From contig CP070758.1 of assembly GCA_020348925.1 (NCBI GenBank), positions 434,001-498,000 of the forward strand: a DNA stretch of 64,000 nt, given 5' to 3'. Of the stretch, positions 33,381-57,346 are shown one piece after another. Made by a program: the position numbers and the translations under genes. Source of the stretch: Gemmatimonadota bacterium. Lineage in GTDB: Bacteria > JBHIER01 > G020348925. The first letter of the stretch is position 1; every line of letters begins with the position of its first letter. Under the pieces are notes generated by a model. That model searched no databases. It was given only the letters and a program-made list of their open reading frames with translations, and was not told the DNA's origin.

Positions 33381-35390
33381 ATGAGCCGCGGAGTCCGTAT
33401 GGTAAAAAAAATAGGCATCATAGTGTCAATCGTTTTTTTGTGTCTCTTCGGTCCTGTTGACGCCCAGGAAAACTTACGGGCCTGGCATACACAGGGCCAG
33501 ACCTTCTTGGTCTGGGAGCACGCGTTCGGTATTTCTACAGCCACTTTCGATATTTTTTCAGCCTCGCAACCCATCACCTCAATCGATACCGCGACGTGGC
33601 TCGGGCGGGTATTCGCCGGAAATGGATCAAACCTGCGCCTCAGTTCCTATGTTCCAAACTCGAGATGGAAGCTGCCGGATACCGCAGGGGGGACTGTGGA
33701 TGTGGACGAGGACGAGGCATATTTTGTCGTCACTCCACATACACCTGGCAATGTTTACTATGCTGTTGTCGTTACCGGGGACACACTCGTACGTTCAAGC
33801 AATACTGTCGGACCGATCGAGGAGACGGTTGACCCTGTGGGTATCGTCCTTCAGCATGAGGATGATAGCCTTCGGGTGTACGGCCACTGGATAGACGGCA
33901 GGAGTGATCCCGGGGCGGGTCGTCCGGGGTATCCCGTAATGGGGAACGAGCACTCCAATGGTTTTGGTTTTAACTTTGCCGTGTGGGAACCTTCCGGCGG
34001 TCGTCCCCAGGGTACCCTCCCCTTGGTTATGTATCTTCATCCATTGATAACGAGCCTCTTTTTCTTGCCACATTTCCCTTCCTTGGGAGGGATATATACG
34101 GAGAACTCAGGGGGCTTTGTTGTCACCTTTGACGATTATCTCATATTCAAGGATATCTTCGGTTTCGGCGTTGTGAATACGTATTGGGTCGGATATAATA
34201 CCGAATACAACCGTTTTGCTCCGGCGCAACCGAGTGATTCCGCGGTGGTCGTCGATTATACATGGCGCCGTGTCCGGTGGGAGCTGGATCGGGTCCTGGC
34301 AAACTTCCCCGTGGATACGATGCGTGTATCCATAATGGGGATGAGTATGGGAGGGCTGGGAACGCTTGTCTATACACAATTTCAGCCGGATTTTTACAGT
34401 GCCGGCTTGAGTTTTGTCCCACCCTCCGATTTTTCATTCATGAGTGATAGGCTTATCGGTACATCGGATCAAAATCTTTCGACAACCCTGGACGGGCAAC
34501 CGGGGATTTACGATGTCTTCAGCTGGAGCTGGCGTCATCGGAATCTCCATGGAAATCGCGGGGACTTCCCCTTTACAACGATCGTCAGCGGAAAAAAGGA
34601 CATATTTGTCGGCTGGAGGGATAAACCGGAATTATTTGAGCTTATCGATTCGACCCGGACCGGATATGCTCTCTACTGGGATGAGCGGGATCATTTCTTG
34701 TGGGACGGAGCCCACTTCCAGTTCTCAGAGCATGTACAGGCTTCGTATTTGACGAGGTTCCGCAGAGATCAATCCTACCCCGCATTTTCACGTACCGATG
34801 TGGATCTCGTAACTCCGGGCCGACAGCCGGATCCCGGAACAGGCGATCCTGCAAATGGGGATCCGTGGGGAACGTGGGGTGGGTATTTCGAGTGGGACCC
34901 GGAGAGTATTGTGGATACGGTGGATACCTGGGCGGTTACGATGTGGGTTGTTTCCCAATCACAATATCCCGGTGACGTTCCTGATGCTGACACAATTCTA
35001 ACGGACGTGACACCCCGTCGGCTGCAAGTATTTCAACCCCAAGCAGGCTTGTCCTATTATTGGGCTCTGGTCAAGGTTGCGAGCGGCGAGATCCTGCAGG
35101 AAGGAACCGTTCGAGCTGCCCTGAACGGTGAGATCATAGTGTCAGGATTGAAATTGGAGAAACAAGCTGCACGATTGACTCTTTTGGGGCCCGGGAAAAG
35201 GGGTGACATCATCCGGGATGGTGAGGTCAATATCCAGGATGTGTTGCGATGCGTAAATATAGTTCTGCAATTAACCGATGCACCGAGCGAATACGAGCGG
35301 TGGGCAGCGGATATGAACGGAGATGAAAACATAAATGTGCTTGATGTCTTTCGAATGGTGCGAATCATTTTAGATGCGGGTATTTATTAA
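33381..35390 (+). CDS. Secreted esterase/depolymerase-like alpha/beta hydrolase with C-terminal dockerin
   Basis: Signal peptide, GMSMGG elbow, GDIIRDGEVNIQD...ADMNGDENINVLD duplicated Ca-loops; start 33381 or 33399. Confidence 0.8.
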   Translation: MSRGVRMVKKIGIIVSIVFLCLFGPVDAQENLRAWHTQGQTFLVWEHAFGISTATFDIFSASQPITSIDTATWLGRVFAGNGSNLRLSSYVPNSRWKLPDTAGGTVDVDEDEAYFVVTPHTPGNVYYAVVVTGDTLVRSSNTVGPIEETVDPVGIVLQHEDDSLRVYGHWIDGRSDPGAGRPGYPVMGNEHSNGFGFNFAVWEPSGGRPQGTLPLVMYLHPLITSLFFLPHFPSLGGIYTENSGGFVVTFDDYLIFKDIFGFGVVNTYWVGYNTEYNRFAPAQPSDSAVVVDYTWRRVRWELDRVLANFPVDTMRVSIMGMSMGGLGTLVYTQFQPDFYSAGLSFVPPSDFSFMSDRLIGTSDQNLSTTLDGQPGIYDVFSWSWRHRNLHGNRGDFPFTTIVSGKKDIFVGWRDKPELFELIDSTRTGYALYWDERDHFLWDGAHFQFSEHVQASYLTRFRRDQSYPAFSRTDVDLVTPGRQPDPGTGDPANGDPWGTWGGYFEWDPESIVDTVDTWAVTMWVVSQSQYPGDVPDADTILTDVTPRRLQVFQPQAGLSYYWALVKVASGEILQEGTVRAALNGEIIVSGLKLEKQAARLTLLGPGKRGDIIRDGEVNIQDVLRCVNIVLQLTDAPSEYERWAADMNGDENINVLDVFRMVRIILDAGIY

Positions 35391-35502
35391 CCTGGATTAT
35401 TCATAAAATCTGTCAGAATATAACATAACACACCTCTTTATTTGACTTATAAAAGTTATTGGTTTGAACTTCGTTCGTTTATACTTTCCCAGTAACCCTG
35501 TA

Positions 35503-35593
35503 TGTCATTCCGGTTTTATACCGGAATCTCTTGAATAGAGAATCTGTTGCATCAAGCGAGGAGATTTCCCGATAAATCGGGACCGGAATGACA
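35503..35593. repeat. Composite palindromic miniature element, family B copy 2
   Basis: 12-bp terminal IR tgtcattccggt/accggaatgaca; shares cccgataaatcgg with copy 1. Confidence 0.75.
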
Positions 35594-35948
35594 GCTCATG
35601 AATAACTATGTAAGGTTGTGAATTCTTAGGAAAAATCCATTCACTTTACAATCTGAAAAAATCTAATTCTGCTGGTGAAACATTTCAATGTACGATTGGT
35701 CTCATTAGAGGGTTAAGGATACTAAACGTACATCTTGGAAAACCACCACAGGGATTTGGGACTAACAATCTTTTCAAGTAACATATTCTCAATATGTCAA
35801 GACCGATTCGAAGTGTCAAGCACGAATATTCTCGAAAAGAAAACGGGACATGATGGAGAGTTCAATGTTCTCGTGTTCTCCGATTGCTATGAAAACAGTA
35901 AAGTATTCGTCTTCCCTCACAACAAACAACATAGATAGGAGGCACATC

Positions 35949-38654
35949 ATGAAAGCGTTACAATTGTTGCTTTTGGCTGTGGGCTGTACAGTGATCACAG
36001 TCGTGGGTTCCCCTCAGGAGATGGCCGCTGCTGCGGATAACGTGGAGCACATACGGCAGGCCATTGTCGCTCAGGGCGCCAATTGGAAGGCCGCTGAAAA
36101 CTGGGTGACCAAGCTTACACCTGAAGAGCAGAGAAAACTCTACGGCGGCATGCGCAAACCGATCAATCCGTCGGAGGCGACGCTATTGTCCCTCCCGCAG
36201 ATCGATAATTTACCCCCAATGTTTGATTGGCGCGACAACAATGGCAGCTGGGTGACACCTGTGAGAAACCAGGGTTTCTGCGGAAGCTGCTGGGATTTCT
36301 CGGCGTTGGCCCAGGTGGAATCCTGGTGGAATATTCACAACCAGGATCCCCATTTGATGGTTGACCTCTCGGAGCAGTTTGTCCTCTCGTGCAGCGACGG
36401 TTCCTGCGACGGTTGGCCTGTTGAGGAAGCTTTGGATTTTATCATATCAATAGGGGGGGTTCCCACCGAAGCATGTTTCGAATATGGGGCCGATGACGCA
36501 ATTCCCTGCAATAATGCCTGCAGCGATTGGGCGGACGAAGCCATCACCATTCCGGGTTGGGGTTACGTCACATTACAGGAGAATAATGTTGAAAACATTA
36601 AAAACGCGGTTCTCAGACATCCCGTATCGGCATGTTATGATATCTATGAAGATTTCAACTATTACACAGGTGGTGTATATGAGCACGTCTGGGGCAATTA
36701 CTTGGCAGGCCATTGCATACTCATTGTCGGCTGGAACGATGAGGAGCAATGCTGGATCTGTAAAAACAGCTGGGGTGAAGATTGGGGTGAATCGGGCTAC
36801 TTCCGTATTCGGTGGGGAAACTGCGAGATGGGCGAGTATATTCCCTTCATATGGGATGACATGACGAGCGGGCCAGCCCTGGCCGTCTCCCCGGACCGCA
36901 TCGATCTCTCCATGAACATCGGTGAATCCGCATCGCAGACGCTTACTATTACGAATACGGGATCCGATGTTTTGGAGTTTTCGATTGTCGATTATGAAGT
37001 GCCGGTTGCCTTCCACCCCGACACCTTGATGGCCTGGGATAACCTTTCGTGGTGGTGCGGCGATCCACGAATTGGCGGTTACGGTGACTATTGGCTTCAA
37101 TATCTTGATACCCCCGTTCTGGACCTGTCCAATACAACCGATCCCCGTCTTTCATTTATGGGCTTCTGGTCAATTGAATCGGCAGTCAATCCGACTCCGC
37201 CATATGATGGATGGGATGGGTGCAACGTTTGGGTATCCGACGATGGGGGTGAGACCTTTCAGGTGGCCTCTCCCATCAGTCCCGGATATCCCTGCCGGCG
37301 TCTGTGGAGTTTCAGCCATCCCGATCGAGGTTGGGATCTTGGTCCGAATATTGGCGGCTGGGTGGGCATCAGCATAGGCTGGACTCCGTGTGAGTTTGAT
37401 CTGTCCGGTTTCAGATCGGACGGCGTCGTAATCAGATTCGCCTTTGCCTCAGATAAAGGCATGTGCACGATTGATGATCCCAGCCTCTATGGTTTCTTCG
37501 TTGACGAAATTCGAGTGACAGACGGAAGCGAGATCCTATTTGTGGATCATGGTGACACTTTTGATACCATGAGTGCAACCGGCTTCGGTGAATACATAAA
37601 CACCTGGCTCGATATTTCCGACGGCGTGGGGATGCTCCAACCCTCCGGATCGGCTCAATCGAATCTTACGATACATACGAGCGATTTAGGATCAAGAAGG
37701 TATCACGGTCGCGTTCGTGTCGTATCCAACGATCCGACAAATCCGGACGTGGAAATTCCGGTGATCCTGGAGGTATTGGCGGATGCAGACGAGGATGGTA
37801 TCATTGATCATAATGACAACTGTCCCGACCTATACAATCCCGGGCAAGAGGACGGGGATGAGGATGGGCTCGGGGATATCTGCGACAATTGCCCCAATGA
37901 CAGTAATCTGGATCAGTCCGATGCTGATGACGATGGCGACGGTGATGTCTGCGACCCGTGCACGGACAGCGACGGTGACGGGTACGGGGACCCGGGCTAT
38001 CCGGCCAATGTATGTGATGAGGACAACTGTCCCCTCGTCTCCAATCCGGATCAGAGTCCGGCCCAGAGGGGCGATATCGACTGCAATGGGGAGACGGATG
38101 TGCTCGATGTTTTGGCAGCGGTGAATCACACCCTGGCAATACTTCCTCTCGTCGGAAGACCCTTCGACAGGGCGGATTGTAACGCCGACATGAGTGTCGA
38201 TATTCTGGACGCCCTGGGCATGATCAACGTGATTCTTGGCCTGGGCGAGTGCGCGCCTGGATTCTTCAGCGCTGGGATCAGCCAGGAGGTGATGCGCTTC
38301 TGTGAGTCGCTCGAACAGTACCTTCCGGCTGATGAGTTCGAGCGGTTCATGGTCCTGGTCAAGGCGGAGGTAGTGATTCCGGCTGGGTACCGTCTTGCCC
38401 AGAACTATCCCAATCCCTTCAATCCGACGACGGATATCAGATATCGGATCGCGGATAATAGAGACCCTGCCCACATCACCCTGAAAATCTACAATACTCT
38501 CGGTCAGGAGGTGAAAATATTGGTGGATGAGGTCAAGGGGCCGGGGTATTATACGGTGACCTGGGACGCGTCCGATGTGGCCAGCGGAATCTATTTTTAC
38601 AGGCTGACAGCCGGCGAATTTACCGTAACGAAAAAAATGTTACTGATACGGTGA
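35949..38654 (+). CDS. Papain-like C1A cysteine peptidase + TSP3 repeats + dockerin + T9SS/FlgD-type CTD
   Basis: GGAGG RBS, signal peptide, QGFCGSCW, GHCILIVGW, KNSWG, DNCP repeats, GDIDCNG...ADCNAD, QNYPNPFNP. Confidence 0.92.
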   Translation: MKALQLLLLAVGCTVITVVGSPQEMAAAADNVEHIRQAIVAQGANWKAAENWVTKLTPEEQRKLYGGMRKPINPSEATLLSLPQIDNLPPMFDWRDNNGSWVTPVRNQGFCGSCWDFSALAQVESWWNIHNQDPHLMVDLSEQFVLSCSDGSCDGWPVEEALDFIISIGGVPTEACFEYGADDAIPCNNACSDWADEAITIPGWGYVTLQENNVENIKNAVLRHPVSACYDIYEDFNYYTGGVYEHVWGNYLAGHCILIVGWNDEEQCWICKNSWGEDWGESGYFRIRWGNCEMGEYIPFIWDDMTSGPALAVSPDRIDLSMNIGESASQTLTITNTGSDVLEFSIVDYEVPVAFHPDTLMAWDNLSWWCGDPRIGGYGDYWLQYLDTPVLDLSNTTDPRLSFMGFWSIESAVNPTPPYDGWDGCNVWVSDDGGETFQVASPISPGYPCRRLWSFSHPDRGWDLGPNIGGWVGISIGWTPCEFDLSGFRSDGVVIRFAFASDKGMCTIDDPSLYGFFVDEIRVTDGSEILFVDHGDTFDTMSATGFGEYINTWLDISDGVGMLQPSGSAQSNLTIHTSDLGSRRYHGRVRVVSNDPTNPDVEIPVILEVLADADEDGIIDHNDNCPDLYNPGQEDGDEDGLGDICDNCPNDSNLDQSDADDDGDGDVCDPCTDSDGDGYGDPGYPANVCDEDNCPLVSNPDQSPAQRGDIDCNGETDVLDVLAAVNHTLAILPLVGRPFDRADCNADMSVDILDALGMINVILGLGECAPGFFSAGISQEVMRFCESLEQYLPADEFERFMVLVKAEVVIPAGYRLAQNYPNPFNPTTDIRYRIADNRDPAHITLKIYNTLGQEVKILVDEVKGPGYYTVTWDASDVASGIYFYRLTAGEFTVTKKMLLIR

Positions 38655-38730
38655 TTTCTGCTGGCTTCTTGAGAGATTCTGAGGTTCACCATATGTTGAT
38701 TGCAGTTTCATTATGTGCTGGAGGTGGTCG

Positions 38731-39232
38731 GTGAAGCGTATTCCCCGGATGAAAAATACTGGAATGCGGATTGATACCCCCTACCTGTCCTCGATTTCCC
38801 TTGCAGCTGCGTTGATTCTCACAGTATGTGTCTGTGGGGGTCAGCAGCCTACAAGCCTTGATGACGCGCTTGCTCTCTACTACGAAAACAGATTGGAGCA
38901 GGCATTGCCGCTCCTCCAGCGCGTGGCTTCGCGGCAGGGGAATGATGCCGAGACTCACGCCTGGCTGGCTGAGACCTGCCGGCGGTTGAGAATGAAAGAC
39001 AACGCTGTGACCACTGCGATGAGAGCCCTCCAACTCGATCCATGCAACAGCTTCGCCCATACGGTCATTGCCGATGCCTGCCACCGTCCCCCCGGAGACG
39101 GGAAGCTGTCGGCCTCAGATACCACGGTGGTTCACATCAACAGAGCGCTAGGGTGCGATTCTACCGATGGAAATGGTTGGGTGTTTCTCTGCGTGGAAGC
39201 CATGCTCCGCGGGAAATTTGATGTGATGCGCA
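38731..39232 (+). CDS. TPR-repeat protein, truncated by gap
   Basis: GGAGG RBS + GTG, hydrophobic N-terminus, TPR-like helices (AETHAWLAE, ALQLDP). Confidence 0.7.
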
Positions 39233-39332
39233 NNNNNNNNNNNNNNNNNNNNNNNNNNNNNNNNNNNNNNNNNNNNNNNNNNNNNNNNNNNNNNNNNNNN
39301 NNNNNNNNNNNNNNNNNNNNNNNNNNNNNNNN
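39233..39332. other. Assembly gap (100 N)
   Basis: Exactly 100 N. Confidence 0.99.
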
Positions 39333-39333
39333 A

Positions 39334-40113
39334 GGCAATCTGACGAGTTTGAGGATCCTGAATATTGATTACACTCAGCTTTCAGGTTCCCTCCCTCCTG
39401 AGATTGGGAATTGTACGGAGTTGATACAGATATTTGCTGATAATAATCAACTGTCTGGTTCAATTCCGCCCGAGATCGGAAATCTTACAAACATGACAAC
39501 ACTTTGGCTTCAGACCAATCAACTCACGGATCTACCGGATTTATCTTCTGATACGAGTTTGACCGTATTGAAAATCCAAGAGAACAAGCTCACCTTTGAG
39601 GATATTGAGCCGAACGTCTTTGTCCCCGATTTCACCTATTCGCCTCAGGATAGTGTGGGCGAGGAACAGGATACCACTATAGAGCAAGGTTCAAGCCTGG
39701 AGCTTGCAGTTGCTGTCGGCGGAACGGCCAACCAATATCAATGGATGCAGGATGGGGTTGATATTCCAGGGGCAGAGAGTGGTTCATACGTCCTTGCCTC
39801 GGCGGATTCTTCACATGCTGGATCGTACGTTTGCAGGATCACCAGCACGATTGCCACCGAATTAACACTCTACAGTAGACCCATCAATGTGAGACTGTCA
39901 GGTGGAGGAGTATGTGAACGCGGTGACGTCACTTGCGACGGCAGTATTGATCTCTTTGATCTGCTCACCCTTGTCAATCACATATTGGGGACCCAGGTCC
40001 TGGAGAAGAATGCATTGTGGGCGGCCAATTGCAATGATGACGGAGAAATCGATCTTCTCGATTTGGTAGGTATTGTCAACGTCATATTGGGCATAGGCGA
40101 ATGTGAGCCCTGA
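39334..40113 (+). CDS. 3' part of a leucine-rich-repeat + Ig + dockerin protein
   Basis: Plant-type LRRs (NQLSGSIPPEIGNLT), YQW...DSSHAGSYVC Ig domain, GDVTCDG...ANCNDDG dockerin. Confidence 0.88.
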   Translation, partial: GNLTSLRILNIDYTQLSGSLPPEIGNCTELIQIFADNNQLSGSIPPEIGNLTNMTTLWLQTNQLTDLPDLSSDTSLTVLKIQENKLTFEDIEPNVFVPDFTYSPQDSVGEEQDTTIEQGSSLELAVAVGGTANQYQWMQDGVDIPGAESGSYVLASADSSHAGSYVCRITSTIATELTLYSRPINVRLSGGGVCERGDVTCDGSIDLFDLLTLVNHILGTQVLEKNALWAANCNDDGEIDLLDLVGIVNVILGIGECEP

Positions 40114-40342: not shown

Positions 40343-42340
40343 TTGTGTGCAACCTCAGTGTTTTCAAAATTGTGTGTCGCGGTGAACGTGCGCGCTTCGA
40401 TTCTTCTCAGAGCAGAAAAGATACAAAAAGAACTTGGTCTCCTTGTCATACTCACGACGATATGCGGGGCTCTGGCCAACACGTCAATCGCTCAGGTCGT
40501 GTACGATCTTAATTTAGGAAATGAAAACATACGGATACAGGGCAGGAATCCGCTGGACGGTCTCGGCCGGGCTGTAGCCAGTGGTGATATCAACGGGGAC
40601 GGCCTCGACGACATCATCATCGGGGCCTTCAGGGCCGATCCCGCCGGTGGTGAGGATGCCGGTGAGACCTACGTCATTTACGGCAGCACGGATTTCCCTA
40701 TCGATCACACCATAGATCTGAACTCCGTCCCTGCGGATGTGACCGTCAGCGGCGCTCACGAACATGACAGACTCGGAAAATCACTCACGAGCGGGGATGT
40801 CAACGGCGACTCCATCGACGATGTTATCATCGGGGCCTACTGGGTCGATCCACCAGGCGGTGAGGATGCCGGTGCGACGTACGTCATTTTCGGCAGAAGG
40901 ACTTTTCCGGTCCATCACACCATAGACCTGAGCTCAGTCTCTGCGGACATCACCGTTTGTGGTGCCCACGAGCACGATGAGTTCGGGAAATCCGTATCCA
41001 GCGGCGACGTCAACGGCGACTCCATCGACGATATCATTATCGGGGCATACCATGCCGATCCCCCGGACTGTGAGAATGCCGGTGAAACTTATGTCATTTA
41101 CGGCAGCGGAAATTTCCCGCCCAACCATATCGTCGATCTCAATTCAGGGACCGCGGACATCACCATCTGCGGTGCTCATAAGTTCGATGAGTCCGGGAGA
41201 TCGGTCTCCAGTTGCGATGTCAACGGTGACTCCGTTGAGGATATCCTCATCGGAGCACCCAATACAGATCCTGTTGGTGGGGCGAACGCCGGCGCGACAA
41301 ATATCATTTACGGCAACCGTGCTTTTCCCGACAAGCACAGGATCGATCTCGGGGTGACCTCAACTGATATCATCATATACGGCGATGATATTGACGACTG
41401 GTTCGGTTCCTCCACAGCGACCGGCGATATCAACGGAGATGGCATCGACGATATGATCATCGGCGCCCATGGCGCCGGTTCAGGTGCCCGCCTCCTTTCC
41501 GGGAGAACGTACGTCATATATGGAGACGATCATTTTCAGGGCGCGCAGTCCATAGATTTGAATACCATTTCGGCCGATGTTACGATTCTCGGAAATAATT
41601 CTTGGGATTTATCCGGCGAATCCGTATGCTGCGGCGATGTAAACGGTGATGGTTTCGATGATATGATCGTCGGAGCCCCTCAGGCCGACCCGTTCGGCCT
41701 TGTGCAGGACGCCGGAGAGATCTACGTTGTTTTCGGCAGCAGGAGCTTTCCAAAGAGATACACGATAGACCTCGATGCGGTCCCGGCGGATATCAGTATC
41801 TATGGCAAGAGTCCCTATGATTGGGCTGGTGTCTCGATAGCCAGTGGTGATATCAATGGAGATGGAAATGACGACATTATCATCGGGGCCTCCCAAGCCG
41901 ATCCGGAAGGAGGCGCAGACGCCGGCGAGGTCTATGTCATCTATGGTTTTCCAACAGTAATAAGAGATTCCGATGGTGATGAAGTGCCGGATCAATTCGA
42001 TAATTGCCCCCAATATCCAAATCCCGATCAGGGTGACGAAGATGCGGACGGTGCCGGTGACGAGTGCGACAACTGTCCCAAGATCTTCAATCCGAATCAG
42101 GAGGATTCCGATCGAGACGACACAGGCGATGCATGCGAACCCCGACGTGGTGATGTCAACGGTGATTGGGATATCGATCTCTTTGATGTGGTGCTTGTTG
42201 CCAACCATATTTTAGGAACCCACATTTTGGGTGAGGACGTCCGCTGGTTGGCCGATTGCAATGGTGATGACACGATCAACGTCTTGGATGCCCTCGGAAT
42301 TGCATATGTCATACTTGAAATCGGCTGTTGCCCGCCATAG
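40343..42340 (+). CDS. FG-GAP (integrin-alpha-like 7-blade propeller) + TSP3 + dockerin protein
   Basis: Seven GD(I/V)NGD..DD.IIGA...YVI(Y/F)G repeats, DNCP repeats, C-terminal dockerin; start uncertain. Confidence 0.88.
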   Translation: MCATSVFSKLCVAVNVRASILLRAEKIQKELGLLVILTTICGALANTSIAQVVYDLNLGNENIRIQGRNPLDGLGRAVASGDINGDGLDDIIIGAFRADPAGGEDAGETYVIYGSTDFPIDHTIDLNSVPADVTVSGAHEHDRLGKSLTSGDVNGDSIDDVIIGAYWVDPPGGEDAGATYVIFGRRTFPVHHTIDLSSVSADITVCGAHEHDEFGKSVSSGDVNGDSIDDIIIGAYHADPPDCENAGETYVIYGSGNFPPNHIVDLNSGTADITICGAHKFDESGRSVSSCDVNGDSVEDILIGAPNTDPVGGANAGATNIIYGNRAFPDKHRIDLGVTSTDIIIYGDDIDDWFGSSTATGDINGDGIDDMIIGAHGAGSGARLLSGRTYVIYGDDHFQGAQSIDLNTISADVTILGNNSWDLSGESVCCGDVNGDGFDDMIVGAPQADPFGLVQDAGEIYVVFGSRSFPKRYTIDLDAVPADISIYGKSPYDWAGVSIASGDINGDGNDDIIIGASQADPEGGADAGEVYVIYGFPTVIRDSDGDEVPDQFDNCPQYPNPDQGDEDADGAGDECDNCPKIFNPNQEDSDRDDTGDACEPRRGDVNGDWDIDLFDVVLVANHILGTHILGEDVRWLADCNGDDTINVLDALGIAYVILEIGCCPP

Positions 42341-43082: not shown

Positions 43083-43303
43083 ACGAGCCTCGGCAACTGT
43101 AAGCATTACACAGACGAAACGACTATTCTCAAGGACCAGGAAGTTTTGCAACGTGAGCCTCATGAAAAAATACTTGCGCACATCGTGTTAAAAAATTATG
43201 TTATTACCTCTGATAAGCGATGGGACTGAGAATTTTGACACAAACGTGCGATCCCTCAACATACATGGACAAAATTACCACATCTCTCAGACAGGAGGTC
43301 ATA

Positions 43304-48809: not shown

Positions 48810-51434
48810 TCAACGTTTTTCACCCAGAAACCAACCAACAATAACAACGGCATCCACCACATCTATGAACCCGTCACTGTTTGCGTCGGCGGTCCAGAAT
48901 TCGATCTCGTTCGCCTCTTTCAATCCCAGGATGATATTGATCACGCTTAAAATATCAAGGACATCAATCTCACAGTTGCCGTTAACATCCCCAATCAATG
49001 GTTCCTGGATATCAATAGTGACATCTTGAATCACGCTTTTTGAGTTGGCATCAGTCACTTCCACCGAGAAAAAAGCGGTCTCAATATCGGTGGGAATGCC
49101 TTCAATCAAACCCTCATCGGAATGAAATGTACACCCTTCCGGCAGAGTACCGGATACAATAGCCCAGGTATACGGCGACCAACCCCCGTTCGCCACCACA
49201 TATCGGGAGTACGGTATGCCCACACTTCCGCAGGTGAGGTCGGCCGCCTCGATGCGCACCGGCGCCGAGTAGACAATATCGTCCGCAAAGACGTCGGACC
49301 AATTGCCGGCCGTATCTTTGTATCTGACGTACACCGTCTTTATTCCCGACTCATCAACGCCTCCGTATTCTGACAGATCCCAATCCAACCGTTCCGACAT
49401 ATAGTTTTCAGGTGGGGACCAGGATCCCCCGTCGTGACTGAACCTCATCTCATCCAAACCGCTGAGCTCCTCAAGGGCACCCAAAGCGTATAACGTCACA
49501 CTCACCGAGTATGTCGTATCAGCCCCATTGTTTATTGAGATTGTCCCTGAATTTGGAGGTGACGTATCGATGTAAAAAGGTCCAATATGGACGGGAATTC
49601 CCCAGTTGCCCGCATTGTCTCCTGCCCTAATGTGAAAATAGTGATCATCCCCATCCTCTAAAGGTGGGCTGACCGAGACCACGACACTTTCCTCAAGGTC
49701 TTTTCGCCAATCCGGCGTTGATATCGCAATCATGTCCCAATGATATGAGTATCCGTCCACCCCACTCCCCTCATCTCCCGTCCCATCCCAAAAGACGTAT
49801 ACAGTATTGGTTCCTGACCATTGACTGACACTGTGTGTGTGACTTCCTATATGTGTTGGTCCAAAGGGCGGTGTCGTATCTTTCCCGAAGCTCCAGCTCA
49901 ATTGTCCCGATGCTCCGGTTACGTGACCGTTGATATCCGAGACCTTGAAGTACAGAGTATGCATTCCATCAGACAGACCATAAAATCCTGGCACAATCCA
50001 TCCGTCATCGTTCCATTCCGTTTCCTGAAGATCCTCGAAGAGGAGCGTCCACTCGCCCCGATATGAATCGATCTGATACCATCCCTCAGCCAGTCCGAAA
50101 TCATCATAAAAACCGAAATTTGAAAACGTTGGAGCCGAGCCATACCATTGGTTCTGGGGCTCGAGAATGGCTCCCATCGTCGGCGGCAGATCGGATCCGA
50201 TCGCTCCGGCAATCTCCACGGCAAAGAGATTCGGGCCGAGATTTTCCAGAATGAGCGGTTCGATTCGTGCATGGGATGGATGAAATCCGTCACTCGTGCC
50301 ACCCACTTCCGGTGTGATCCCGAAGACCATGTTTTTGGCCGTCTGCTCACCGTACAACCAGTCGTTGGTCCCTCCATTCGTAGGGTAGATCGTCCCCGAG
50401 GCTGAATTCCCCGACTCATAGCCGTTGAAGGCCGCCATACCCTGGGTAATACTCAGAAACGTGGCGTGATCGGGTGTGTTCTCGGCCACATATCCCCAGG
50501 GGAAGAGGAGCAAATTGCCGTACGCGTGATACGAGAGAGAAATGACGATGTTATGGGTTTCAGCGAAATCGCGGATGGCTTGTGTCTCCGGTTCGGAGAA
50601 CGGTTCAGACCCTCGAAAAACGTTCGAGCCCGGAATCGGGCTCGAGCCGATATCATCGAACCCCCACATGTAACCGTAATTCCGGTTGAGATCGACGCCG
50701 TACGTGCCATCGCCATTATCGCGGCGATTCTTCCGCCACCACATGTCCACTTCAAAGACGTATTCATGACCATCGGGATTGAGCATGGGTACAAGCCAGA
50801 GCTGGCGAGTATCCACAAGGTGCGTGACCTCAGGATCCGTACCGTAATTATCCACCAGATAGTGCATGAAATGGAGAAGAATCTCCGGCGTGATGATCTC
50901 CCGGGCGTGATGACAGGCCATGTAGAGAACTTCCGGTTCATGTGCTTCCTCCTCCAAGACGTTATCGGAGATCTTGATGGCCCATATATCTCGATCTGCC
51001 AGGCCCTGTGTTTTCTCCCAGCCATCCCCTATGTCGTACAGTTTTCCGATGTCGGGGTGCGCGTCCTCAACGCTCCGCATCTCCGATAGCATCTCGGAGT
51101 ATGTATGAAAGGGCTCGAAATAGTCCTGCTGCCGCATTGCAGTGCTCAGAGCATCAAGGTCATCAATCCGAACCGTCGTCTCAAAACCAAGATCTCGGAT
51201 CTTCTTACCCTCTTCTTCTTGGACCACGACATCAATAAACCGACCACTCTTGTCGTAGTGTGTGATGTCCGGATGAAGTCTGAGCAATCGGACAACACTC
51301 GCCTCATCTTTCCCCGAAAGGTCTACACGGATCAATCTCCTCGGCAGGTCGTCAGAACGGACATTTCCTGCTGCGAGACATACGATCCCTATGCACACCA
51401 ATCGTATAAAAAGATCCTGTTGTCCATATCTCAT
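48810..51434 (-). CDS. M14 carboxypeptidase T-like + Ig-like domains + dockerin
   Basis: HHARE, WRKNRR, DLNRN, SYHAY, ITPEVG; GDVNGNCEID...ADANSDG. Confidence 0.93.
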   Translation of the reverse strand: MRYGQQDLFIRLVCIGIVCLAAGNVRSDDLPRRLIRVDLSGKDEASVVRLLRLHPDITHYDKSGRFIDVVVQEEEGKKIRDLGFETTVRIDDLDALSTAMRQQDYFEPFHTYSEMLSEMRSVEDAHPDIGKLYDIGDGWEKTQGLADRDIWAIKISDNVLEEEAHEPEVLYMACHHAREIITPEILLHFMHYLVDNYGTDPEVTHLVDTRQLWLVPMLNPDGHEYVFEVDMWWRKNRRDNGDGTYGVDLNRNYGYMWGFDDIGSSPIPGSNVFRGSEPFSEPETQAIRDFAETHNIVISLSYHAYGNLLLFPWGYVAENTPDHATFLSITQGMAAFNGYESGNSASGTIYPTNGGTNDWLYGEQTAKNMVFGITPEVGGTSDGFHPSHARIEPLILENLGPNLFAVEIAGAIGSDLPPTMGAILEPQNQWYGSAPTFSNFGFYDDFGLAEGWYQIDSYRGEWTLLFEDLQETEWNDDGWIVPGFYGLSDGMHTLYFKVSDINGHVTGASGQLSWSFGKDTTPPFGPTHIGSHTHSVSQWSGTNTVYVFWDGTGDEGSGVDGYSYHWDMIAISTPDWRKDLEESVVVSVSPPLEDGDDHYFHIRAGDNAGNWGIPVHIGPFYIDTSPPNSGTISINNGADTTYSVSVTLYALGALEELSGLDEMRFSHDGGSWSPPENYMSERLDWDLSEYGGVDESGIKTVYVRYKDTAGNWSDVFADDIVYSAPVRIEAADLTCGSVGIPYSRYVVANGGWSPYTWAIVSGTLPEGCTFHSDEGLIEGIPTDIETAFFSVEVTDANSKSVIQDVTIDIQEPLIGDVNGNCEIDVLDILSVINIILGLKEANEIEFWTADANSDGFIDVVDAVVIVGWFLGEKR

Positions 51435-51446: not shown

Positions 51447-52229
51447 CTACTTAATATAGAAGAAACCAAATGTCCTGGCCGCCGATCCAAAGACCCCTTT
51501 GACCCCGGGAATATGATTGACATCGGGGGAATCGGGATCTCCGGGATCGGACCTCGTATACCCGGCGTAGTTTTTGTCGACGGCGAAAATATCGATCCAG
51601 ACCTGACCCTCCCTCTCCAGATCATAGGTGGGGATGTAATAGACCGTATCGGAAAAAGCATACGACTCGAATGTTACGGAGCTTCTCTGCGTCACGTGTA
51701 TGTAATACTCCTCCGCCCCCTCGCTTTTCGACCATCTTAACCTGAGAAAAGACTGCTGTTCAACACTGTCACCATACCCAGGGTAGAGTATCTGAAAATA
51801 GCCGGGAACCGTGGTCGTGGCTGAGAGCGTTTTCCCGTCCTGAGCTCTCACATCCAGGGTGTAGGTCGAGCTGTGCTGGACGCGAAAGGTCTCCGTGGCC
51901 CGATAGGTGCCGGACTGACCCGCCACTTCGGGCAGGATGACTTCCCGGTCATCCCCGGACAGGCGCACGATGGCCCCTGAAACGGCAATATCCATGTCCG
52001 GCTGTTCGATATCCAGCGTCCGCTCCACGTGGACGCTGCTGGGCCCGATATCCGTCCGGAGGAGACAATGAACGGACAGCGTCTCCTCATACGCAACATC
52101 GGAGGTGGGGATCTCTATACATCCGCCCACCAGAAACAGACTTGAGATCACGATAGCACACCACATATCTCTTGTCGCGCCGGGATGATTAAACAGGCTC
52201 ATCTTGATTGCCAATTTTTCTCTTTCCAT
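51447..52229 (-). CDS. DUF4249-like lipoprotein
   Basis: Lipobox LVGGC, VSGAIVRL, GTY, ATTTVP, NHIPGVKGVFGS; follows a TonB receptor. Confidence 0.8.
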   Translation of the reverse strand: MEREKLAIKMSLFNHPGATRDMWCAIVISSLFLVGGCIEIPTSDVAYEETLSVHCLLRTDIGPSSVHVERTLDIEQPDMDIAVSGAIVRLSGDDREVILPEVAGQSGTYRATETFRVQHSSTYTLDVRAQDGKTLSATTTVPGYFQILYPGYGDSVEQQSFLRLRWSKSEGAEEYYIHVTQRSSVTFESYAFSDTVYYIPTYDLEREGQVWIDIFAVDKNYAGYTRSDPGDPDSPDVNHIPGVKGVFGSAARTFGFFYIK

Positions 52230-52250: not shown

Positions 52251-54494
52251 CTAAAACGTCGCCCGAAAGCCCAAGGTCGGCAGAAGGGGAAACATTGTCA
52301 CCTCCTTCCTCTTCGGGGGTGACACGTCATAGTCGAAGTAGTACCACAGAACATTCTTTTTGTTAATAACATTGATGACCTGGACGTACATCTGCAGATC
52401 CCAGTTCTTGAAGGCGAACGTCCGGGCCAGACTGAAGTCAAGCCGGTTGTACACCGGGTATCGAAAGCCGTTCTTCGTCCCTTCCATGTTTTTCCAGTCA
52501 TCCACGCCGTAGTCTTCCCAACTCCCGTCCCAGAAATTATACTCCCTGTGTTTATATCGGCCGATGATCCTTGAGTACGGCAGGCCGCTGCCGGCCGTCC
52601 ATCGAACGTTCATTCCCCACTTGTCATTCAGAGGATAGGTCAGGACGCCGTTGAGCGCGTGCCGTCGATCGTACTTGGTGTAATAGCTCACCCCGTTCAC
52701 CTCCTTCTTCGTCTGCGCGTAGCCGTACCCGACCCAGCCCAAAAGCTTTCCCACAGTCTTCTTGACCAGGACCTCCACCCCCCAAGCCTCTCCCCTGCCT
52801 GTGTAGAAAAAATCATCCTCGTTGATAAACTCCCGGTTCACGGCCAGTATGTCTTTGATCTCCTTGAAATATCCCTCAAGGGTCAGGTTCACTTCCGGCG
52901 AAACCCACTGCTCCAAGCCAAGAATGTAGTGAGCGGCCCGGCCGGGTTTTTTCTCACCATCGGCAAACCACATCTCCATGGGTATGTAAAGGTCCTCATC
53001 GTTGAACGTCTTGAGATATTGATAGTAGATACCCCAGGAGCCGTTCAGGGCCAGATCCTCACTGAGCCGGTACCTGAAACCGAGCCTCGGCGCCGCCCGC
53101 CAGAAATCTCCGAGGTTGAACCGGCTCAGCCTGATCCCGGGCTGTATCGACAGCAGCGGCGTGAGGGCCCATTTGTCCTGAAGGTAAAAATCGATCTCAG
53201 CCGGCCGCGTCGCATTCTCCAGCCCGACGTTCAAATCGACCGTGACGAGGTACGAGAACTTGTAGTTTCTCATCAGCATCCCGAAACGCAGCTCATGATC
53301 GTCCGAAGCGAGAAAGGTCCAGTCGCCCTGAAGCGTGGCGTCCTGTATCCTGTTGCGCATGACGAAGTGTTCGTCGTTGTCGGCATCCACGTCCGTGAAA
53401 AACGAGGTCCATGAAAGCAGAACATTGGATATCACTCTCGTTCCGATAATGGACTGCCACGTAAGACCGACCGTTTTATTTCCCCAGGCCCAGTAGACGT
53501 CTTCCTGTTCCTCCTCATCGGGATCGTCCTCCTCATAATCGAAAATGTCCTTGCCGTACAATCCGCTCAGAATGAGGCGATTGTTCGGCCCCAGGGCATA
53601 GTTGATCTTGCCGTGAAAATCGTAGAAATAGTAGGGGAACTCTCTGTTGAACATCGGCACAATCTTGTCGAAATAGGTTCGCCGACCGGACAACATCCAC
53701 GATCCTTTCGGGGATGGACCTTCGAGAGACAACTTGGAGCTGAGGAGACTCACCTCCGCGACGCCTTGCATCTCCTGGCTGTTCCCGTCCTTGTTGATCA
53801 CGTTCAAAACAGAGGCCAAACGACCGCCGTACTGTGCCGGGAATCCGCCCAAAAGCAGTTCGGCCTCCTTGACCGCATCCACGTTGAATGTGCTGAAAAT
53901 GCCTCCGAGATGATAGGGATTGTAGACCGTGACGCCGTCCAAAAGGATGAGGTTCTGATCAGGGCTGCTCCCTCTGACGTAGAGCTGGCTAAAAAAGTCG
54001 TTCTGGGCCATCACACCAGGCAGCATTTGGAGGGACCGGAAGAGATCGGCCTCGGCCAGGGAGGGCATCATGCGGAGTTCCCGTGTACTCAATGACCGGT
54101 TGCTGACAGTGACCTCCGTTTCAAACTTGGCCCGCTCGCCGCTGGAAATAACGGCCTCCATTTCAATCACATTCAGCTCCAGGGAGGCATCGAAGGTGGC
54201 CGTCTGACCCGCTTTCACGGTGATGTCGCCCTCGGTTTTTTTGTAACCCACAATCGATGCCACGACGCGGTACGTCCCATCAGGCACGTTGTGAATGACG
54301 TAGTAGCCGTTCATGCCCGTCACCGCTCCCAACCCCGTCCCACGCACCAGGACGTTGACATAGGGCAGCGTCTCGCCGTTTGAGCCGTCTCTGATGACCC
54401 CGCGTATCAGGCCCGTGTTCTCAAAACCCAGATGAACTGAAACAAGGCAGAACAGCAAGAGGCACAGAAAGAGATGTGTACGACTTTTCAGCAT
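52251..54494 (-). CDS. TonB-dependent receptor with N-terminal carboxypeptidase-regulatory-like domain
   Basis: GETLPYVNV, LPGV, VRGSSPDQNLILLDG, GGFPAQYGGRL, YNRLD, terminal Phe. Confidence 0.95.
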   Translation of the reverse strand: MLKSRTHLFLCLLLFCLVSVHLGFENTGLIRGVIRDGSNGETLPYVNVLVRGTGLGAVTGMNGYYVIHNVPDGTYRVVASIVGYKKTEGDITVKAGQTATFDASLELNVIEMEAVISSGERAKFETEVTVSNRSLSTRELRMMPSLAEADLFRSLQMLPGVMAQNDFFSQLYVRGSSPDQNLILLDGVTVYNPYHLGGIFSTFNVDAVKEAELLLGGFPAQYGGRLASVLNVINKDGNSQEMQGVAEVSLLSSKLSLEGPSPKGSWMLSGRRTYFDKIVPMFNREFPYYFYDFHGKINYALGPNNRLILSGLYGKDIFDYEEDDPDEEEQEDVYWAWGNKTVGLTWQSIIGTRVISNVLLSWTSFFTDVDADNDEHFVMRNRIQDATLQGDWTFLASDDHELRFGMLMRNYKFSYLVTVDLNVGLENATRPAEIDFYLQDKWALTPLLSIQPGIRLSRFNLGDFWRAAPRLGFRYRLSEDLALNGSWGIYYQYLKTFNDEDLYIPMEMWFADGEKKPGRAAHYILGLEQWVSPEVNLTLEGYFKEIKDILAVNREFINEDDFFYTGRGEAWGVEVLVKKTVGKLLGWVGYGYAQTKKEVNGVSYYTKYDRRHALNGVLTYPLNDKWGMNVRWTAGSGLPYSRIIGRYKHREYNFWDGSWEDYGVDDWKNMEGTKNGFRYPVYNRLDFSLARTFAFKNWDLQMYVQVINVINKKNVLWYYFDYDVSPPKRKEVTMFPLLPTLGFRATF

Positions 54495-54561
54495 GATATA
54501 TGTGAGACAAGGCTATCTCTATTATGTTTCAATGGAATTTTGAGAGAGAAAACATTTATTA

Positions 54562-54583
54562 TTGGAAGCATACAGCTTACCAA
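54562..54583 (-). promoter_or_regulatory. Bacterial SECIS hairpin
   Basis: Minus strand UUGG-U-AAGC-UGUAU-GCUU-CCAA; apical loop with G begins 18 nt after the in-frame UGA; bulged U. Confidence 0.75.
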
Positions 54584-54808
54584 TTACACTTTTCACGTCC
54601 CCCCAAAACCGATGGACACACTATCTCCCTCAACGATGACGGGCACGACCCTCTCGCCTTTCGAGTAGACCAGCATGTTCTCCAGCGAGGCCTCATTTTC
54701 CATCACATCGATGTATTCGACCGTATAGCCTCTTCGAACATAAACCTCGCGGGCCTTCTTCGTAAACGGACAGGCCTCTTTACCGTAGACCACAATTTTT
54801 CTATCCAT
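54584..54808 (-). CDS. Uxx-star-family glutaredoxin-like selenoprotein (C-terminus GGT-U-KV)
   Basis: YGKEACPFT, VPVIVEG..VSIGFGGT then TGA AAA GTG TAA, followed by a SECIS. Confidence 0.85.
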
Positions 54809-54811
54809 TTT

Positions 54812-57346
54812 TCACCCCTCTAGAATGACCCGAACAATGCCCACGATATCCAGAATATCGATCTCCCCGTCATCGTTGTAATCCGCCCGCCAGAATTCCC
54901 CCGAATCGGGTTGATGCAACCCCAGAATGATGTTGACGCACAGAAGGACATCGAGGAGGTCAATCCGGGTATCGTCATTCACATCGCCCTTCATGCTCTC
55001 CGAATGAAACCAGTCGAAGAAGGTATCCATGGCAGGATGATTGGTGACGTTCACCGGATGGCTGCCGTCCATGTTGGCCACAAAGATATCCATATTTTCA
55101 TCACCGCAGAACTGGATGTACGCAATTTTTGAGCCGTCCGGCGACCAGACCGGCAGCCAGGCTATTGTCGTCGTATCCGCGGTGTCGGTGACAGCCGTTT
55201 CAGTCAACGTCTCCACGTCGATAACATAAACCGCCCAGGGACCGCGGAGAAGGCCTTCTTGGAACCAATCCCCCGGACCCAGATACCGCTCGAAAGCCAC
55301 ATACCGACCGTCCGGCGACCAGACGGGATCGTGGTCCGAGTTTTCATTGTACGTCAATCTTTCAACAGGCCCCTGCCCATCCGTGATGTCCATAATGTAA
55401 AGCTGCTCCCTGCCGGTATCCCGATCCGATTTGAACACGATCTTCGACCCGTCCGGTGAAAACTCCGGATCGTTGTCAATGATATTTTCATTCCGCGTCA
55501 GTGTATCAACAACCTCCCCTGTCTTCGGTTCCATGATATATATCTCGTCATCACCGTCCATCCATGAGACGAACAGCATCTGCGATCCATCCGGCGACCA
55601 CGAAGAGTGGCCGTCAATGACGCTGTTTGACGTCAGTCTCCTCTCCTCCCCGCTGGCCACATCGAGATCGAATACCTCCCAGGAGAAAACATCACCAGGG
55701 TTCAACTCCCGGGTGAAGGTGACCCTCACTTCTGAGGCCGGTTCCAACAACTCTGACTTCGACACAATCTTAGATTGACCTCCCTCTTTCCGGACAAAAA
55801 CATCCGGAAGCTCTTCATGGTAGGTGTTGTAGGTCAATCTGGAAATATGTGAGCCATCCATATTCATCAGGTAAAACTCATCCAAGGGGTCGTCCCGATT
55901 GGAGGTGAACACCATCTTTCCGGTCAGCTCCACATCGATGCCCGGTGAAGCGCCGTGACTGTCGGAGGAGGAGCTAAAGTTCCCGGCCGTATCCATGGCC
56001 GTCACGGTGTACTCATAGATGAGTCCGTTCGACAAGCCCGTATCTCGGTAAGCTGGCCAAAAGCTGAAATCGAGAAACTGAAAATCGGGCTCACCCTGCC
56101 CCTTCCGGAAGAGGGCGTAGAAGAACATATCCGGATCGGAGTTCGGATACCAGAAGACGGTCAGCGTCCCCTCGCCCGGGACGAATTGTCGTATTTTCGG
56201 TGTGGCCGGGGGAGCAGTGTCCTCGCCGGGCACAACTTCCAGGGTGAAGATGATGTCAGGCAGACTATCGATCTCCGTGGTCCCAGCCCACGGATACCAA
56301 TCAGGCTGCTCTTCGAAGGAGAACTCCGGCTCAGGCGTCACTTTGTGTCGATCCGATCCATCCGGGTTGACCACATAGATATCCCCGATGTCCCTGAGAT
56401 CCTCGCTGATCACCCAGAAGACCAGCTTCGTGCCGTCCGGCGACCACGCGGGCATGATGTCAACGACATCGTTGCGGCTGATCTCGATCTCATCGTCCCC
56501 GTCGATATCGATGACGTACAGATCCCAATCGCCGAGCCCATAGTTTCCGATATCGTTGACGTGTCTGTAAAAAGCCACCCGAGTTCCGTCAGGCGAAATC
56601 TTGGGATCAAAATCTCCGAACCGAAAGGGTCCGGTACTGATGCCGGGAATCCGGGGAAACGTCAACTGCCTCTGGTTCGTACCGTCGTCATTCATGAGCC
56701 ACACCCCGGAAGTCATTGTCGGATCACTCAGGACCTCCTTTTTGAAAACAATGGTTCCACCCACCCAGTGAGGATCGGCCTCCAGAGTGTCCGGGGTATT
56801 GGTCAGGTTGACGATGTTCTCCCCGTTCACATCCATGATGAAAAGATCCAGGTCCAGTCCTCCCGGCGGGCTGTTCCGGCTGGAGGCAAACAGGATTCGA
56901 TCCCCTTCCGGAGACCAGACAGGAACCGCGTCAATGATGTTATCATTGTCGGTTAACAATTGAGGCTCGGAACCGTCGATGTTTCTGATACCGATCTCCG
57001 AGGAGAAGGCGTCGTCCTCGTTGATGTTACCATCCCCGTTGAGATCCTCGGTAAATCGCGAAAAGAGGATTTTCGTCCCATCCGGTGAGACGTGAACGTG
57101 GTTCTCCTGATAGGGCGTCTCACTGAGCCTGACCCGATGTGATCCATCGATATTCATCGACGCAATTGAGTACCACGCGGCAGAGAAGCGGTGGACGTCC
57201 ATCCGCTCTGTCCCCCTGAGGAGTGATTTCCTCCTCAGAAATTCCTGCAGAGGAGAGCGAAGAGGGAAGGAGGTATCGACTGCTAACCCAATATTTGAGG
57301 CAGTGACCAGTATCAAACAGAAAAGCACGATGGGACATCTCTTCAT
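54812..57346 (-). CDS. TolB-like (PD40 repeat) double propeller + FN3 + dockerin protein
   Basis: Many WSPDG repeats in two blocks, YEYTVTAMDTAGN FN3, GDVNDDTRID...ADYNDDG. Confidence 0.9.
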   Translation of the reverse strand: MKRCPIVLFCLILVTASNIGLAVDTSFPLRSPLQEFLRRKSLLRGTERMDVHRFSAAWYSIASMNIDGSHRVRLSETPYQENHVHVSPDGTKILFSRFTEDLNGDGNINEDDAFSSEIGIRNIDGSEPQLLTDNDNIIDAVPVWSPEGDRILFASSRNSPPGGLDLDLFIMDVNGENIVNLTNTPDTLEADPHWVGGTIVFKKEVLSDPTMTSGVWLMNDDGTNQRQLTFPRIPGISTGPFRFGDFDPKISPDGTRVAFYRHVNDIGNYGLGDWDLYVIDIDGDDEIEISRNDVVDIMPAWSPDGTKLVFWVISEDLRDIGDIYVVNPDGSDRHKVTPEPEFSFEEQPDWYPWAGTTEIDSLPDIIFTLEVVPGEDTAPPATPKIRQFVPGEGTLTVFWYPNSDPDMFFYALFRKGQGEPDFQFLDFSFWPAYRDTGLSNGLIYEYTVTAMDTAGNFSSSSDSHGASPGIDVELTGKMVFTSNRDDPLDEFYLMNMDGSHISRLTYNTYHEELPDVFVRKEGGQSKIVSKSELLEPASEVRVTFTRELNPGDVFSWEVFDLDVASGEERRLTSNSVIDGHSSWSPDGSQMLFVSWMDGDDEIYIMEPKTGEVVDTLTRNENIIDNDPEFSPDGSKIVFKSDRDTGREQLYIMDITDGQGPVERLTYNENSDHDPVWSPDGRYVAFERYLGPGDWFQEGLLRGPWAVYVIDVETLTETAVTDTADTTTIAWLPVWSPDGSKIAYIQFCGDENMDIFVANMDGSHPVNVTNHPAMDTFFDWFHSESMKGDVNDDTRIDLLDVLLCVNIILGLHQPDSGEFWRADYNDDGEIDILDIVGIVRVILEG

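Follow-up and report, generated by a model that had tools for sequence, protein, structure and literature searches.

Between positions 33,381 and 57,346 of a 64,000-nucleotide stretch (the window) from the genome of a Gemmatimonadota bacterium (GCA_020348925.1, contig CP070758.1, positions 434,001 to 498,000), seven genes encode proteins with a duplicated calcium-loop dockerin, and one of these proteins, C1A peptidase 2, also carries a cohesin-like domain. The locus raises the question of whether the seven proteins assemble into one dedicated protein-degrading complex, as a sequence-only reading of the window had proposed, or belong to something larger. Almost all that is understood of cohesin-dockerin complexes concerns polysaccharide degraders that are monoderms, and our analysis points to proteolysis organised at the surface in a lineage of which very little has been sampled; the best-matching public data are sediment metagenomes, which may include the source sample itself. 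The answer that we consider fairly probable is a genome-wide cohesin-dockerin docking system that is anchored on the outer surface by a type IX secretion system (T9SS) and biased to protein degradation.

Dockerins and cohesins across the genome

Pfam searches of the source genome (G000, 96% complete) return at least 148 dockerin matches, with 150 of 527 candidates scored, and 81 cohesin matches. Iterated profiles built on these matches were run over stop-to-stop open reading frames (ORFs), gap-cut ORFs included, so that gene counts may differ slightly. They identify 299 dockerins of a main class on 293 ORFs, 162 cohesins on 101 ORFs, and T9SS C-terminal sorting domains (CTDs) on 253 ORFs genome-wide; 128 of the cohesins are found on 77 CTD-bearing ORFs, and reversed-ORF decoys give no matches. 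Based on profiles and structural models, the genome is predicted to encode about 300 Sec-exported proteins with one dominant, near-symmetric, Ca-binding dockerin class, and about 100 proteins with type I-like cohesins, three quarters of these proteins ending in a CTD.

With D, C and T standing for dockerin, cohesin and CTD, the observed architectures include D (169 ORFs), DT (63), CT (21), DCT (19), CDCT (13), CD (11), CCT (7), CCCT (7), and longer forms of up to six C plus T. Cohesin and dockerin occur together on 55 ORFs, whereas at least two cohesins are present on 38 ORFs and at least three on 15. Some proteins are nearly pure cohesin arrays, consisting of three cohesins plus a dockerin or six cohesins plus a CTD, and most ORFs with three or more cohesins, none of which lies inside the window, show only non-catalytic Ig-like or TSP3 stalks. 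The presence of further cohesins, including non-catalytic multi-cohesin proteins, had been set beforehand as a check on the sequence-only reading and was borne out; the caveat that its dockerins might be orphans loses its force in that sense, since cohesins are abundant. Giant proteins of 1,800-3,700 aa with HYDIN/ASH-like Ig repeats, cohesins or a dockerin, and a CTD are encoded at L152, L153 and L179 (G000:C1:2311364-2331667; 3087997-3100307), and are likely to be long stalks.

Besides the main dockerin class there is a second, atypical one, whose first loop is degenerate; it comprises 24 domains on 20 ORFs, 18 of which bear cohesins. It tracks one cohesin clade: 27 of the 49 members of this clade are in proteins with a second-class dockerin, compared to 4 of the 110 members of the other clade.

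The census also bears on the narrow reading, in which the seven neighbours form a single dedicated planctosome-like proteolytic complex on the cohesin of C1A peptidase 2. Three of the seven are peptidases, the genes of an M6 peptidase and a TonB receptor stand alongside, and the cohesin is real. However, the genes are distributed over two assembly pieces and both strands, there is one cohesin for seven dockerins, and the same dockerin class recurs on 293 ORFs. Dockerin and cohesin ORFs span ~16% of the genome, and nine non-overlapping clusters have seven or more dockerin ORFs per 24 kb (mean 1.39, gaps ignored), eight others thus being as dense as the one in the window, whose density is not special. 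Clustering of dockerin genes with cohesin or TonB genes was considered and rejected: 25 of 175 dockerin-only genes are located within 5 kb of a cohesin gene vs 54 of 400 in the background, and 10 of 175 are near TonB receptors vs 16 of 400. We therefore regard a single complex encoded at a single locus as highly improbable; what the window shows is part of a system scattered over the genome, and not a machine encoded by an operon.

Structure and conservation of the docking modules

C1A peptidase 2 (43220-45907, +) is composed of a papain domain, a HYDIN-like Ig domain, a BACON domain, a cohesin, a dockerin, a two-helix linker and a CTD. Its tail (44888-45904) was modelled by AlphaFold2 using a 92-row paralog alignment as input, with a mean predicted local distance difference test score (pLDDT) of 89.4. 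The type I-like cohesin (44888-45301, +) is recognized by Pfam (29.1 vs 24.1 bits), the top PDB matches of the cohesin profile are cohesins, and the model fits the type I cohesin 5nrk_A over 134 residues with Z 18.3 and a root-mean-square deviation (rmsd) of 1.7 Å. A second fold search against type I cohesins gave a TM score by target of 0.80 with rmsd 2.3 Å, so the cohesin suspected by the sequence-only reading is real. Its class score, for a domain that was in the training set, places it in the class of the genome's multi-cohesin proteins. The dockerin (45308-45475, +) fits the type I dockerin 2ccl_B (Z 11.8, rmsd 1.0 Å, 62 residues). The two-helix linker between dockerin and CTD (45521-45601, +) was identified by profile search and is modelled as helices 212-219 and 227-238 with pLDDT 66-84, and the T9SS type A sorting domain (45608-45904, +; TIGR04183, 28.8 vs 23 bits) resembles the C-terminal part of PorU (6za2_B, Z 11.2).

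All seven proteins named in the sequence-only reading match Pfam Dockerin_1, six of them above the curated cut-off and C1A peptidase 1 slightly below it (21.5 vs 22.9 bits), and at least four of five Ca-ligand positions are kept in both loops of each domain. The seven duplicated dockerins are thus genuine, at coordinates within a few codons of those first given. Across the genome 271 of 299 dockerins have two intact Ca-loops. The same hydrophobic residues occupy positions 10-11 and 17 of both repeats. Positions 10-11 and 17-18 are alike between the repeats as well as between the D and DT classes, which, if type I dockerins are a guide, suggests a single main specificity and dual-mode binding. 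Two cysteines, one in the second Ca-loop and one in the tail, covary (both present in 153 domains, neither in 56, one in 27, with 63/299 unmatched by the pattern and paralogs not being independent), which suggests a disulfide clasp.

In 66 cases the dockerin is followed by the CTD with only the conserved two-helix linker between them. A linker profile built on these 66 finds five further matches, none in DCT proteins, therefore linker and cohesin are alternatives at that position. The cohesin class of the 33 dockerin-cohesin-CTD tails recurs in free-standing small CT proteins, which score 109-122 bits and were outside the training set, and also in one lipoprotein cohesin. These similarities would be consistent with DCT proteins being fusions of dockerin cargo with its carrier.

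The fixed form of such cassettes, namely dockerin-cohesin-CTD (33), dockerin-hairpin-CTD (66) and cohesin-spacer-second-class dockerin, could also be explained if domain shuffling had spread the modules as tags for structure or sorting, with dockerins capped in cis, either by the cohesin that comes next or by the two-helix linker ahead of the CTD, or serving as Ca-stabilised tags, and with no higher-order assembly. The silence of the hairpin profile in DCT proteins agrees with this explanation, as do the small dockerin and cohesin numbers common in a neighbouring phylum (see below) and the dockerin-plus-CTD clusters in Fidelibacterota (feature search, all scores <0.9). The two single-chain models (predicted TM scores, pTM, of 0.60 and 0.67) do not speak to it, pTM being silent on cis packing of dockerin with cohesin or hairpin. 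On the other hand, 146 dockerin-only ORFs stop right after the dockerin and leave nothing to cap it in cis, the near-pure multi-cohesin proteins and the cohesin-CTD proteins with no other domain would have little use unless they had partners in trans, and conservation is good in the binding helices and the Ca-loops. We consider this alternative rather unlikely.

Cargo of the proposed docking system

Non-tail bodies were scanned in 298 of 339 dockerin or cohesin ORFs (E <= 1e-9, or 1e-14 for 80 of the 82 cohesin-bearing ones); the seven window ORFs were scanned separately, and 34 ORFs with bodies shorter than 70 residues (short or cut) were left out. Peptidase domains are present in 46 of 305 proteins, including 31/157 dockerin-only, 4/59 DT, 8/82 cohesin-bearing and 3/7 window proteins, a count that excludes beta-lactamase/S12-like proteins, two peptidyl-arginine deiminases, two amidohydrolases and two DJ-1/PfpI proteins. 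With families M28, C25, M14, M1, S8, S41, C1 and M6, peptidases are the largest catalytic group. Glycoside hydrolase (GH) or lyase domains occur in 5 of 298 bodies (GH99, GH31, GH13, GH57 and a heparinase II C-terminal domain), giving a ratio of peptidases to carbohydrate-active cargo of ~9:1. A dockerin without CTD is carried by 10 of the 15 M28 homologs and 7 of the 11 C25 homologs of the genome, and by five M14 proteins.

The remaining cargo includes FG-GAP, LVIVD, PD40 and other propellers, LamG (23 of 59 DT proteins), FISUMP, leucine-rich repeat (LRR) proteins, Ig stalks and bodies without a match. An all-against-all clustering of the cargo merged into one 189-member component via shared stalks and was dropped. 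Protein degradation is therefore the main catalytic theme and not the whole system, most of the cargo being non-catalytic or unassigned. The proteolytic function claimed by the sequence-only reading stands as a bias and fails as a dedication.

Several loci outside the window illustrate this cargo. A region far richer in peptidases than the window (L158-L159, G000:C1:2574117-2611159) contains eight tandem M28-dockerin genes and, after them, dockerin genes of the M1, M14 and C25 families, all CTD-less. Three tandem gingipain-like C25 proteases of 1,500-1,700 aa end in a dockerin in place of the CTD (L214:3283-17986, -). Seven FISUMP (Fib_succ_major) proteins with a dockerin and no CTD are encoded at L104, L126, L157, L209, L212 and L215. 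A multi-Kazal serine-protease-inhibitor protein also has a dockerin (L096:229-1647, -), so the surface coat may carry its own protease inhibitor.

Anchoring and export

The genome encodes SprA (above cut-off) and PorU (738 vs 420 bits), the porV gene is located directly after porU, and type A CTD substrates are present. Eight PorV-family matches were found, but one PorV was counted because the other seven are not beside porU, most being in TonB-receptor-like loci. These T9SS components and the TonB receptors fit the guess of the sequence-only reading that the host is a diderm of the Fibrobacterota-Chlorobiota-Bacteroidota type. A CDCT gene (G000:C1:3284895-3292177, +) is located directly upstream of porU-porV and links the docking system to T9SS attachment genes.

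In the T9SS-anchored docking system that we favour, cohesin-CTD proteins would be exported and anchored by the T9SS. They would range from small single-cohesin carriers, by way of adaptors that have cohesin and dockerin, to scaffolds in which Ig stalks bear as many as six cohesins. Cargo with a dockerin tag would clip onto them in a Ca-dependent manner, and two-module proteins such as C1A peptidase 2 would act as branch points, producing an open, mixed coat and not one fixed complex. Propellers, lectin-like and unassigned cargo domains would bind particles or substrates, and released peptides would enter via TonB-dependent receptors, for example the one encoded beside the M14 gene. As our best guess, and as the least supported step of the model, 163 CTD-less dockerin proteins would cross the outer membrane bound to a cohesin-CTD carrier.

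The last step is needed for more than half of the dockerin proteins, which have no CTD. In 163 ORFs the dockerin is terminal and the 3' end is intact; a linker/hairpin or CTD remnant was found downstream of only two, and an origin as broken CTD genes was rejected. By a crude heuristic, signal-like N-termini are present in 127 of 144 dockerin-only ORFs vs 222 of 600 ORFs of the background, whereas a lipobox was seen in 1 of 144 vs 18 of 600. The sole secretin scores best as PilQ (243.8 bits vs 183.2 for GspD, both under cut-off) and its gene comes after a PilP-like/SPOR gene, and GspK (PF03934) has no match in the genome by a profile that was unspecific in controls. As judged from sequence, CTD-less dockerin proteins would reach the periplasm without an evident outward route. 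The T9SS is reported to move folded, very large proteins (PMC9251779), and a CTD-less reporter is the negative control for export in Flavobacterium johnsoniae (PMC10994853).

A bolder version of this step, which we hold to be a serious possibility though a doubtful one, treats the dockerin as a substitute export-and-display tag. In it, ~160 folded CTD-less proteins would attach in the periplasm to small cohesin-CTD carriers and hitchhike on them through SprA of a T9SS without the canonical Gld motor, DCT proteins would be cargo and carrier fused, and the linker would mask the dockerin until the CTD is cut. No account of cohesin-mediated co-export was found in the literature searched, although subscription journals and supplements may hold one. 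Co-export, if true, would be a new mode for type IX secretion and the first cohesin-dockerin pair serving protein export, and the pair, probably disulfide-clasped, would be usable for display on Gram-negative cells. If the hitchhiking is real, this would be the largest cohesin-dockerin network described, tuned to protein over plant polysaccharide.

Alternatively, the binding may be real but the CTD-less dockerin proteins may be retained in the periplasm by lipoprotein cohesins, where they would act on peptides that TonB receptors bring in; the surface would be reached by the CTD-bearing proteins alone. The intact ends of the 163 ORFs, the near absence of lipoboxes among dockerin-only ORFs and the PilQ-like nature of the only secretin agree with this explanation. 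So do the occurrence of a single-cohesin lipoprotein of the carrier class (G000:C1:2246567-2247175), the position of the M14 gene after a TonB receptor gene, and the frequency of the exopeptidases M28, M14 and M1 among CTD-less dockerin proteins. However, one or two lipoprotein cohesins are set against 77 cohesin-CTD proteins, and the lipoprotein cohesin has no clear ortholog in the one same-family genome (G001, 87% complete), the G001 matches being CTD-bearing at five inspected loci. The CTD-less class moreover includes seven C25 gingipain-like proteases and LRR, FISUMP and FG-GAP proteins, all of them kinds known from the cell surface. We judge periplasmic retention improbable. Two small single-cohesin lipoproteins are encoded at L150:31-531 (-) and G000:C1:3165988-3166674 (-), the former being of the carrier cohesin class and located among housekeeping-like genes.

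A number of observations weigh against the T9SS-anchored docking system itself. GldM and GldN have no matches in G000 and G001 and are found in two of two Bacteroidota controls, although divergent homologs are possible and GldK and GldL were not searched; they have no match in two genomes of the neighbouring phylum sample, G046 and G039, either. According to PMC10994853, the GldLM motor of F. johnsoniae is required for substrate release from the translocon. By this analogy, either the T9SS possibly uses a different energiser or it may be atypical or poorly working. Two or three lipoprotein-type cohesin ORFs could retain cargo in the periplasm. The cohesins are divergent (15-26% mean identity) and outnumbered by dockerins (162 vs >300), 33 of them come directly after a dockerin, so that many may be filled in cis, and the window cohesin is without the N-terminal Pro-Gly of its class. 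Finally, dockerin-only genes lie no nearer to cohesin or TonB genes than the background given above, peptidases account for only ~15% of the scanned cargo, and 44 of 157 dockerin-only bodies have no Pfam match at E <= 1e-9 (as is the case for 15 of 59 DT bodies).

Comparison with known docking systems

The predicted docking system resembles the cellulosome type and is not a cellulosome, because GH48, GH9, GH5 and CBM3 have no matches in the 298 + 7 scanned proteins (cut-offs 1e-9 and 1e-14). The closest published parallel is Ca. Stygibacter (Cloacimonadota), for which a cellulosome-like complex, described with four enzyme types and one 3,755-aa scaffoldin bearing CBM2/CBM3, has been proposed from genomes (PMC8542988). 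As here, the host is a diderm, signal-peptide enzymes including S8, C25 and GH57 have C-terminal dockerins, and a multi-cohesin scaffold ends in a CTD. In contrast to it, the present genome has ~300 dockerin and 101 cohesin ORFs, two dockerin classes, cohesin-bearing enzymes and small cohesin-CTD carriers, and shows no CBM3 match at the cut-offs used. CBM2 or CBM3 on scaffolds and a GH18 dockerin chitinase likewise have no match at these strict cut-offs, below which weak matches to carbohydrate-binding modules (CBMs) would fall.

The 'planctosome' of Nemodlikiaceae (Planctomycetes), which is hypothetical, is also a cohesin-dockerin display of peptidases including M14, without cellulases, and has a cohesin-bearing lamin-tail domain (LTD) anchor with P-domains and TSP3, a HYR adaptor and M12B (PMC6461901). 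In our case a T9SS CTD takes the place of this anchor, and the system is much bigger. LTD, P-domain and HYR have no match among the 82 cohesin-bearing bodies (E <= 1e-14 for 80 and 1e-9 for 2, at which weak matches would escape), and the LTD domains seen in this genome are confined to dockerin cargo and a CTD protein. A survey of cellulosome bacteria reports one planctomycete with a two-cohesin scaffoldin (PMC11557425).

Clostridial and ruminococcal cellulosomes share with the present system the type I-like folds, adaptors and scaffolds, dispersed genes, more than one dockerin class and many unassigned cargo domains. The respective reports give 78 cohesins on 31 scaffoldins and >200 dockerin ORFs for (Pseudo)Bacteroides cellulosolvens (PMC5590126), and 222 dockerin proteins with 16 peptidase modules for R. 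flavefaciens FD-1 (PMC2930009). Our counts exceed these (162 cohesins on 101 ORFs and 312 dockerin ORFs) but come from our own profiles and so are not strictly comparable. Unlike in those cellulosomes, the host is a diderm whose cargo must cross the outer membrane, GH/lyase cargo amounts to 5/298, and two cysteines of the dockerin covary. Non-cellulosomal cohesins of A. fulgidus (2xdh) and of C. perfringens GH84/GH33 (2w1n, 2vo8) are similar in having cohesin and dockerin on one enzyme chain and give high structural matches. Those systems are small, whereas 55 ORFs bear both modules here. With Bacteroidota the T9SS shares SprA, PorU, PorV and type A CTDs, and it differs in that GldM/GldN were not found by the searches described above and most dockerin proteins are CTD-less. 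Since a peptidase 'cellulosome' in a diderm has already been published as a hypothesis, its existence is less of a surprise; what stands out is the size of the system, its two dockerin classes and the puzzle of how ~160 CTD-less proteins would be exported.

Distribution in related genomes

In the same-family genome G001 we found 69 cohesin matches and, with 150 of 271 candidates scored, at least 48 dockerin matches at E <= 1e-9; the D, DCT and small CT forms are again present. The single-strand binding protein (SSB) of the source genome, a weak marker, has Latescibacterota-titled records among its closest named relatives. A neighbouring phylum was represented by 81 genomes, namely those of the phylum of a Latescibacterota-titled relative, in which dockerins occur in 49 and cohesins in 68 genomes (dockerin cut-off 1e-7, at most 69 dockerin candidates scored per genome). 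The maxima in this sample are 10 dockerins and 28 cohesins, compared to 142 and 38 in G000 under identical cut-offs. Dockerins and cohesins as such are thus widespread, whereas their expansion is specific to the lineage. G046 and G039, with 28 and 18 cohesin matches and nine dockerins each, are possible smaller versions of the docking system.

Genes and assembly of the window

Among the seven dockerin proteins of the window only the two C1A peptidases have a CTD, and the other five end at the dockerin. The putative esterase (33297-35390, +; terminal dockerin 35202-35372) is followed by C1A peptidase 1 (35850-38654, +), with papain, MAM-like and TSP3 domains, a dockerin (38070-38237), a two-helix linker (~38280-38363) and a CTD (38370-38651). 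Further downstream are an LRR-Ig protein (39334-40113, +; terminal dockerin 39922-40089), an FG-GAP beta-propeller with TSP3 (40343-42340, +; terminal dockerin 42149-42316) and C1A peptidase 2. On the opposite strand are the M14 carboxypeptidase (48810-51434, -; terminal dockerin 48825-48992) and a TolB-like double PD40 propeller (54812-57346, -; terminal dockerin 54821-54988). The enzyme assignments of the sequence-only reading hold, since the catalytic Q/C/H/N of both C1A peptidases, the zinc and catalytic residues of M14 and the GxSxG of the esterase are intact, and its statement that the seven include no glycoside hydrolase agrees with Pfam. All seven were also described as secreted, which is not visible for the LRR-Ig protein because its 5' end is lost at a gap. 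An M6 metallopeptidase with intact motifs and a CTD but no dockerin (45998-48721, +) had been overlooked, as had the CTDs of the two C1A peptidases. The genes of a TonB-dependent receptor (52251-54494, -), a DUF4249 protein (51447-52229, -) and M14 are probably co-transcribed, because the spacers between them are only 22 and 13 bp.

The source genome consists of 206 pieces joined by 205 identical 100-N spacers. The N-gap noted earlier inside the 24-kb span does exist (39233-39332), but it is a join between two assembly pieces and not an interruption of a single locus, so that the span consists of a 6.6-kb piece with two dockerin genes (the esterase and C1A peptidase 1) and the next piece with the other five. 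No contig bridging this gap was found among the listed public contigs. The join separates a gap-cut TPR protein fragment (38713-39232, +) from the LRR-Ig-dockerin fragment, and a single gene spanning both was rejected. At a second 100-N join (32497-32596) the two sides are probably not neighbours, because a public contig of run X2 reaches 32496 and then continues with other sequence. No RNA datasets are among the listed public runs containing window sequence, and a promoter and terminator scan of the region stayed at chance level (12 vs 15.0 and 24 vs 16.9).

Other secreted proteins are encoded around the dockerin genes. Two have a CTD and no dockerin, namely a gap-cut Ig-rich fragment (30009-32496, -) and a lamin-tail-domain protein (57607-58644, +). 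Two large HExxH proteins, M1 aminopeptidase-like by eye and having neither dockerin nor CTD, flank a membrane protein (6026-11866, -). A secreted protein that we take to be C69 dipeptidase-like (26509-28146, +) and a presumably P1/S58 aminopeptidase-like protein (59761-60960, +) fit a peptide-eating lifestyle.

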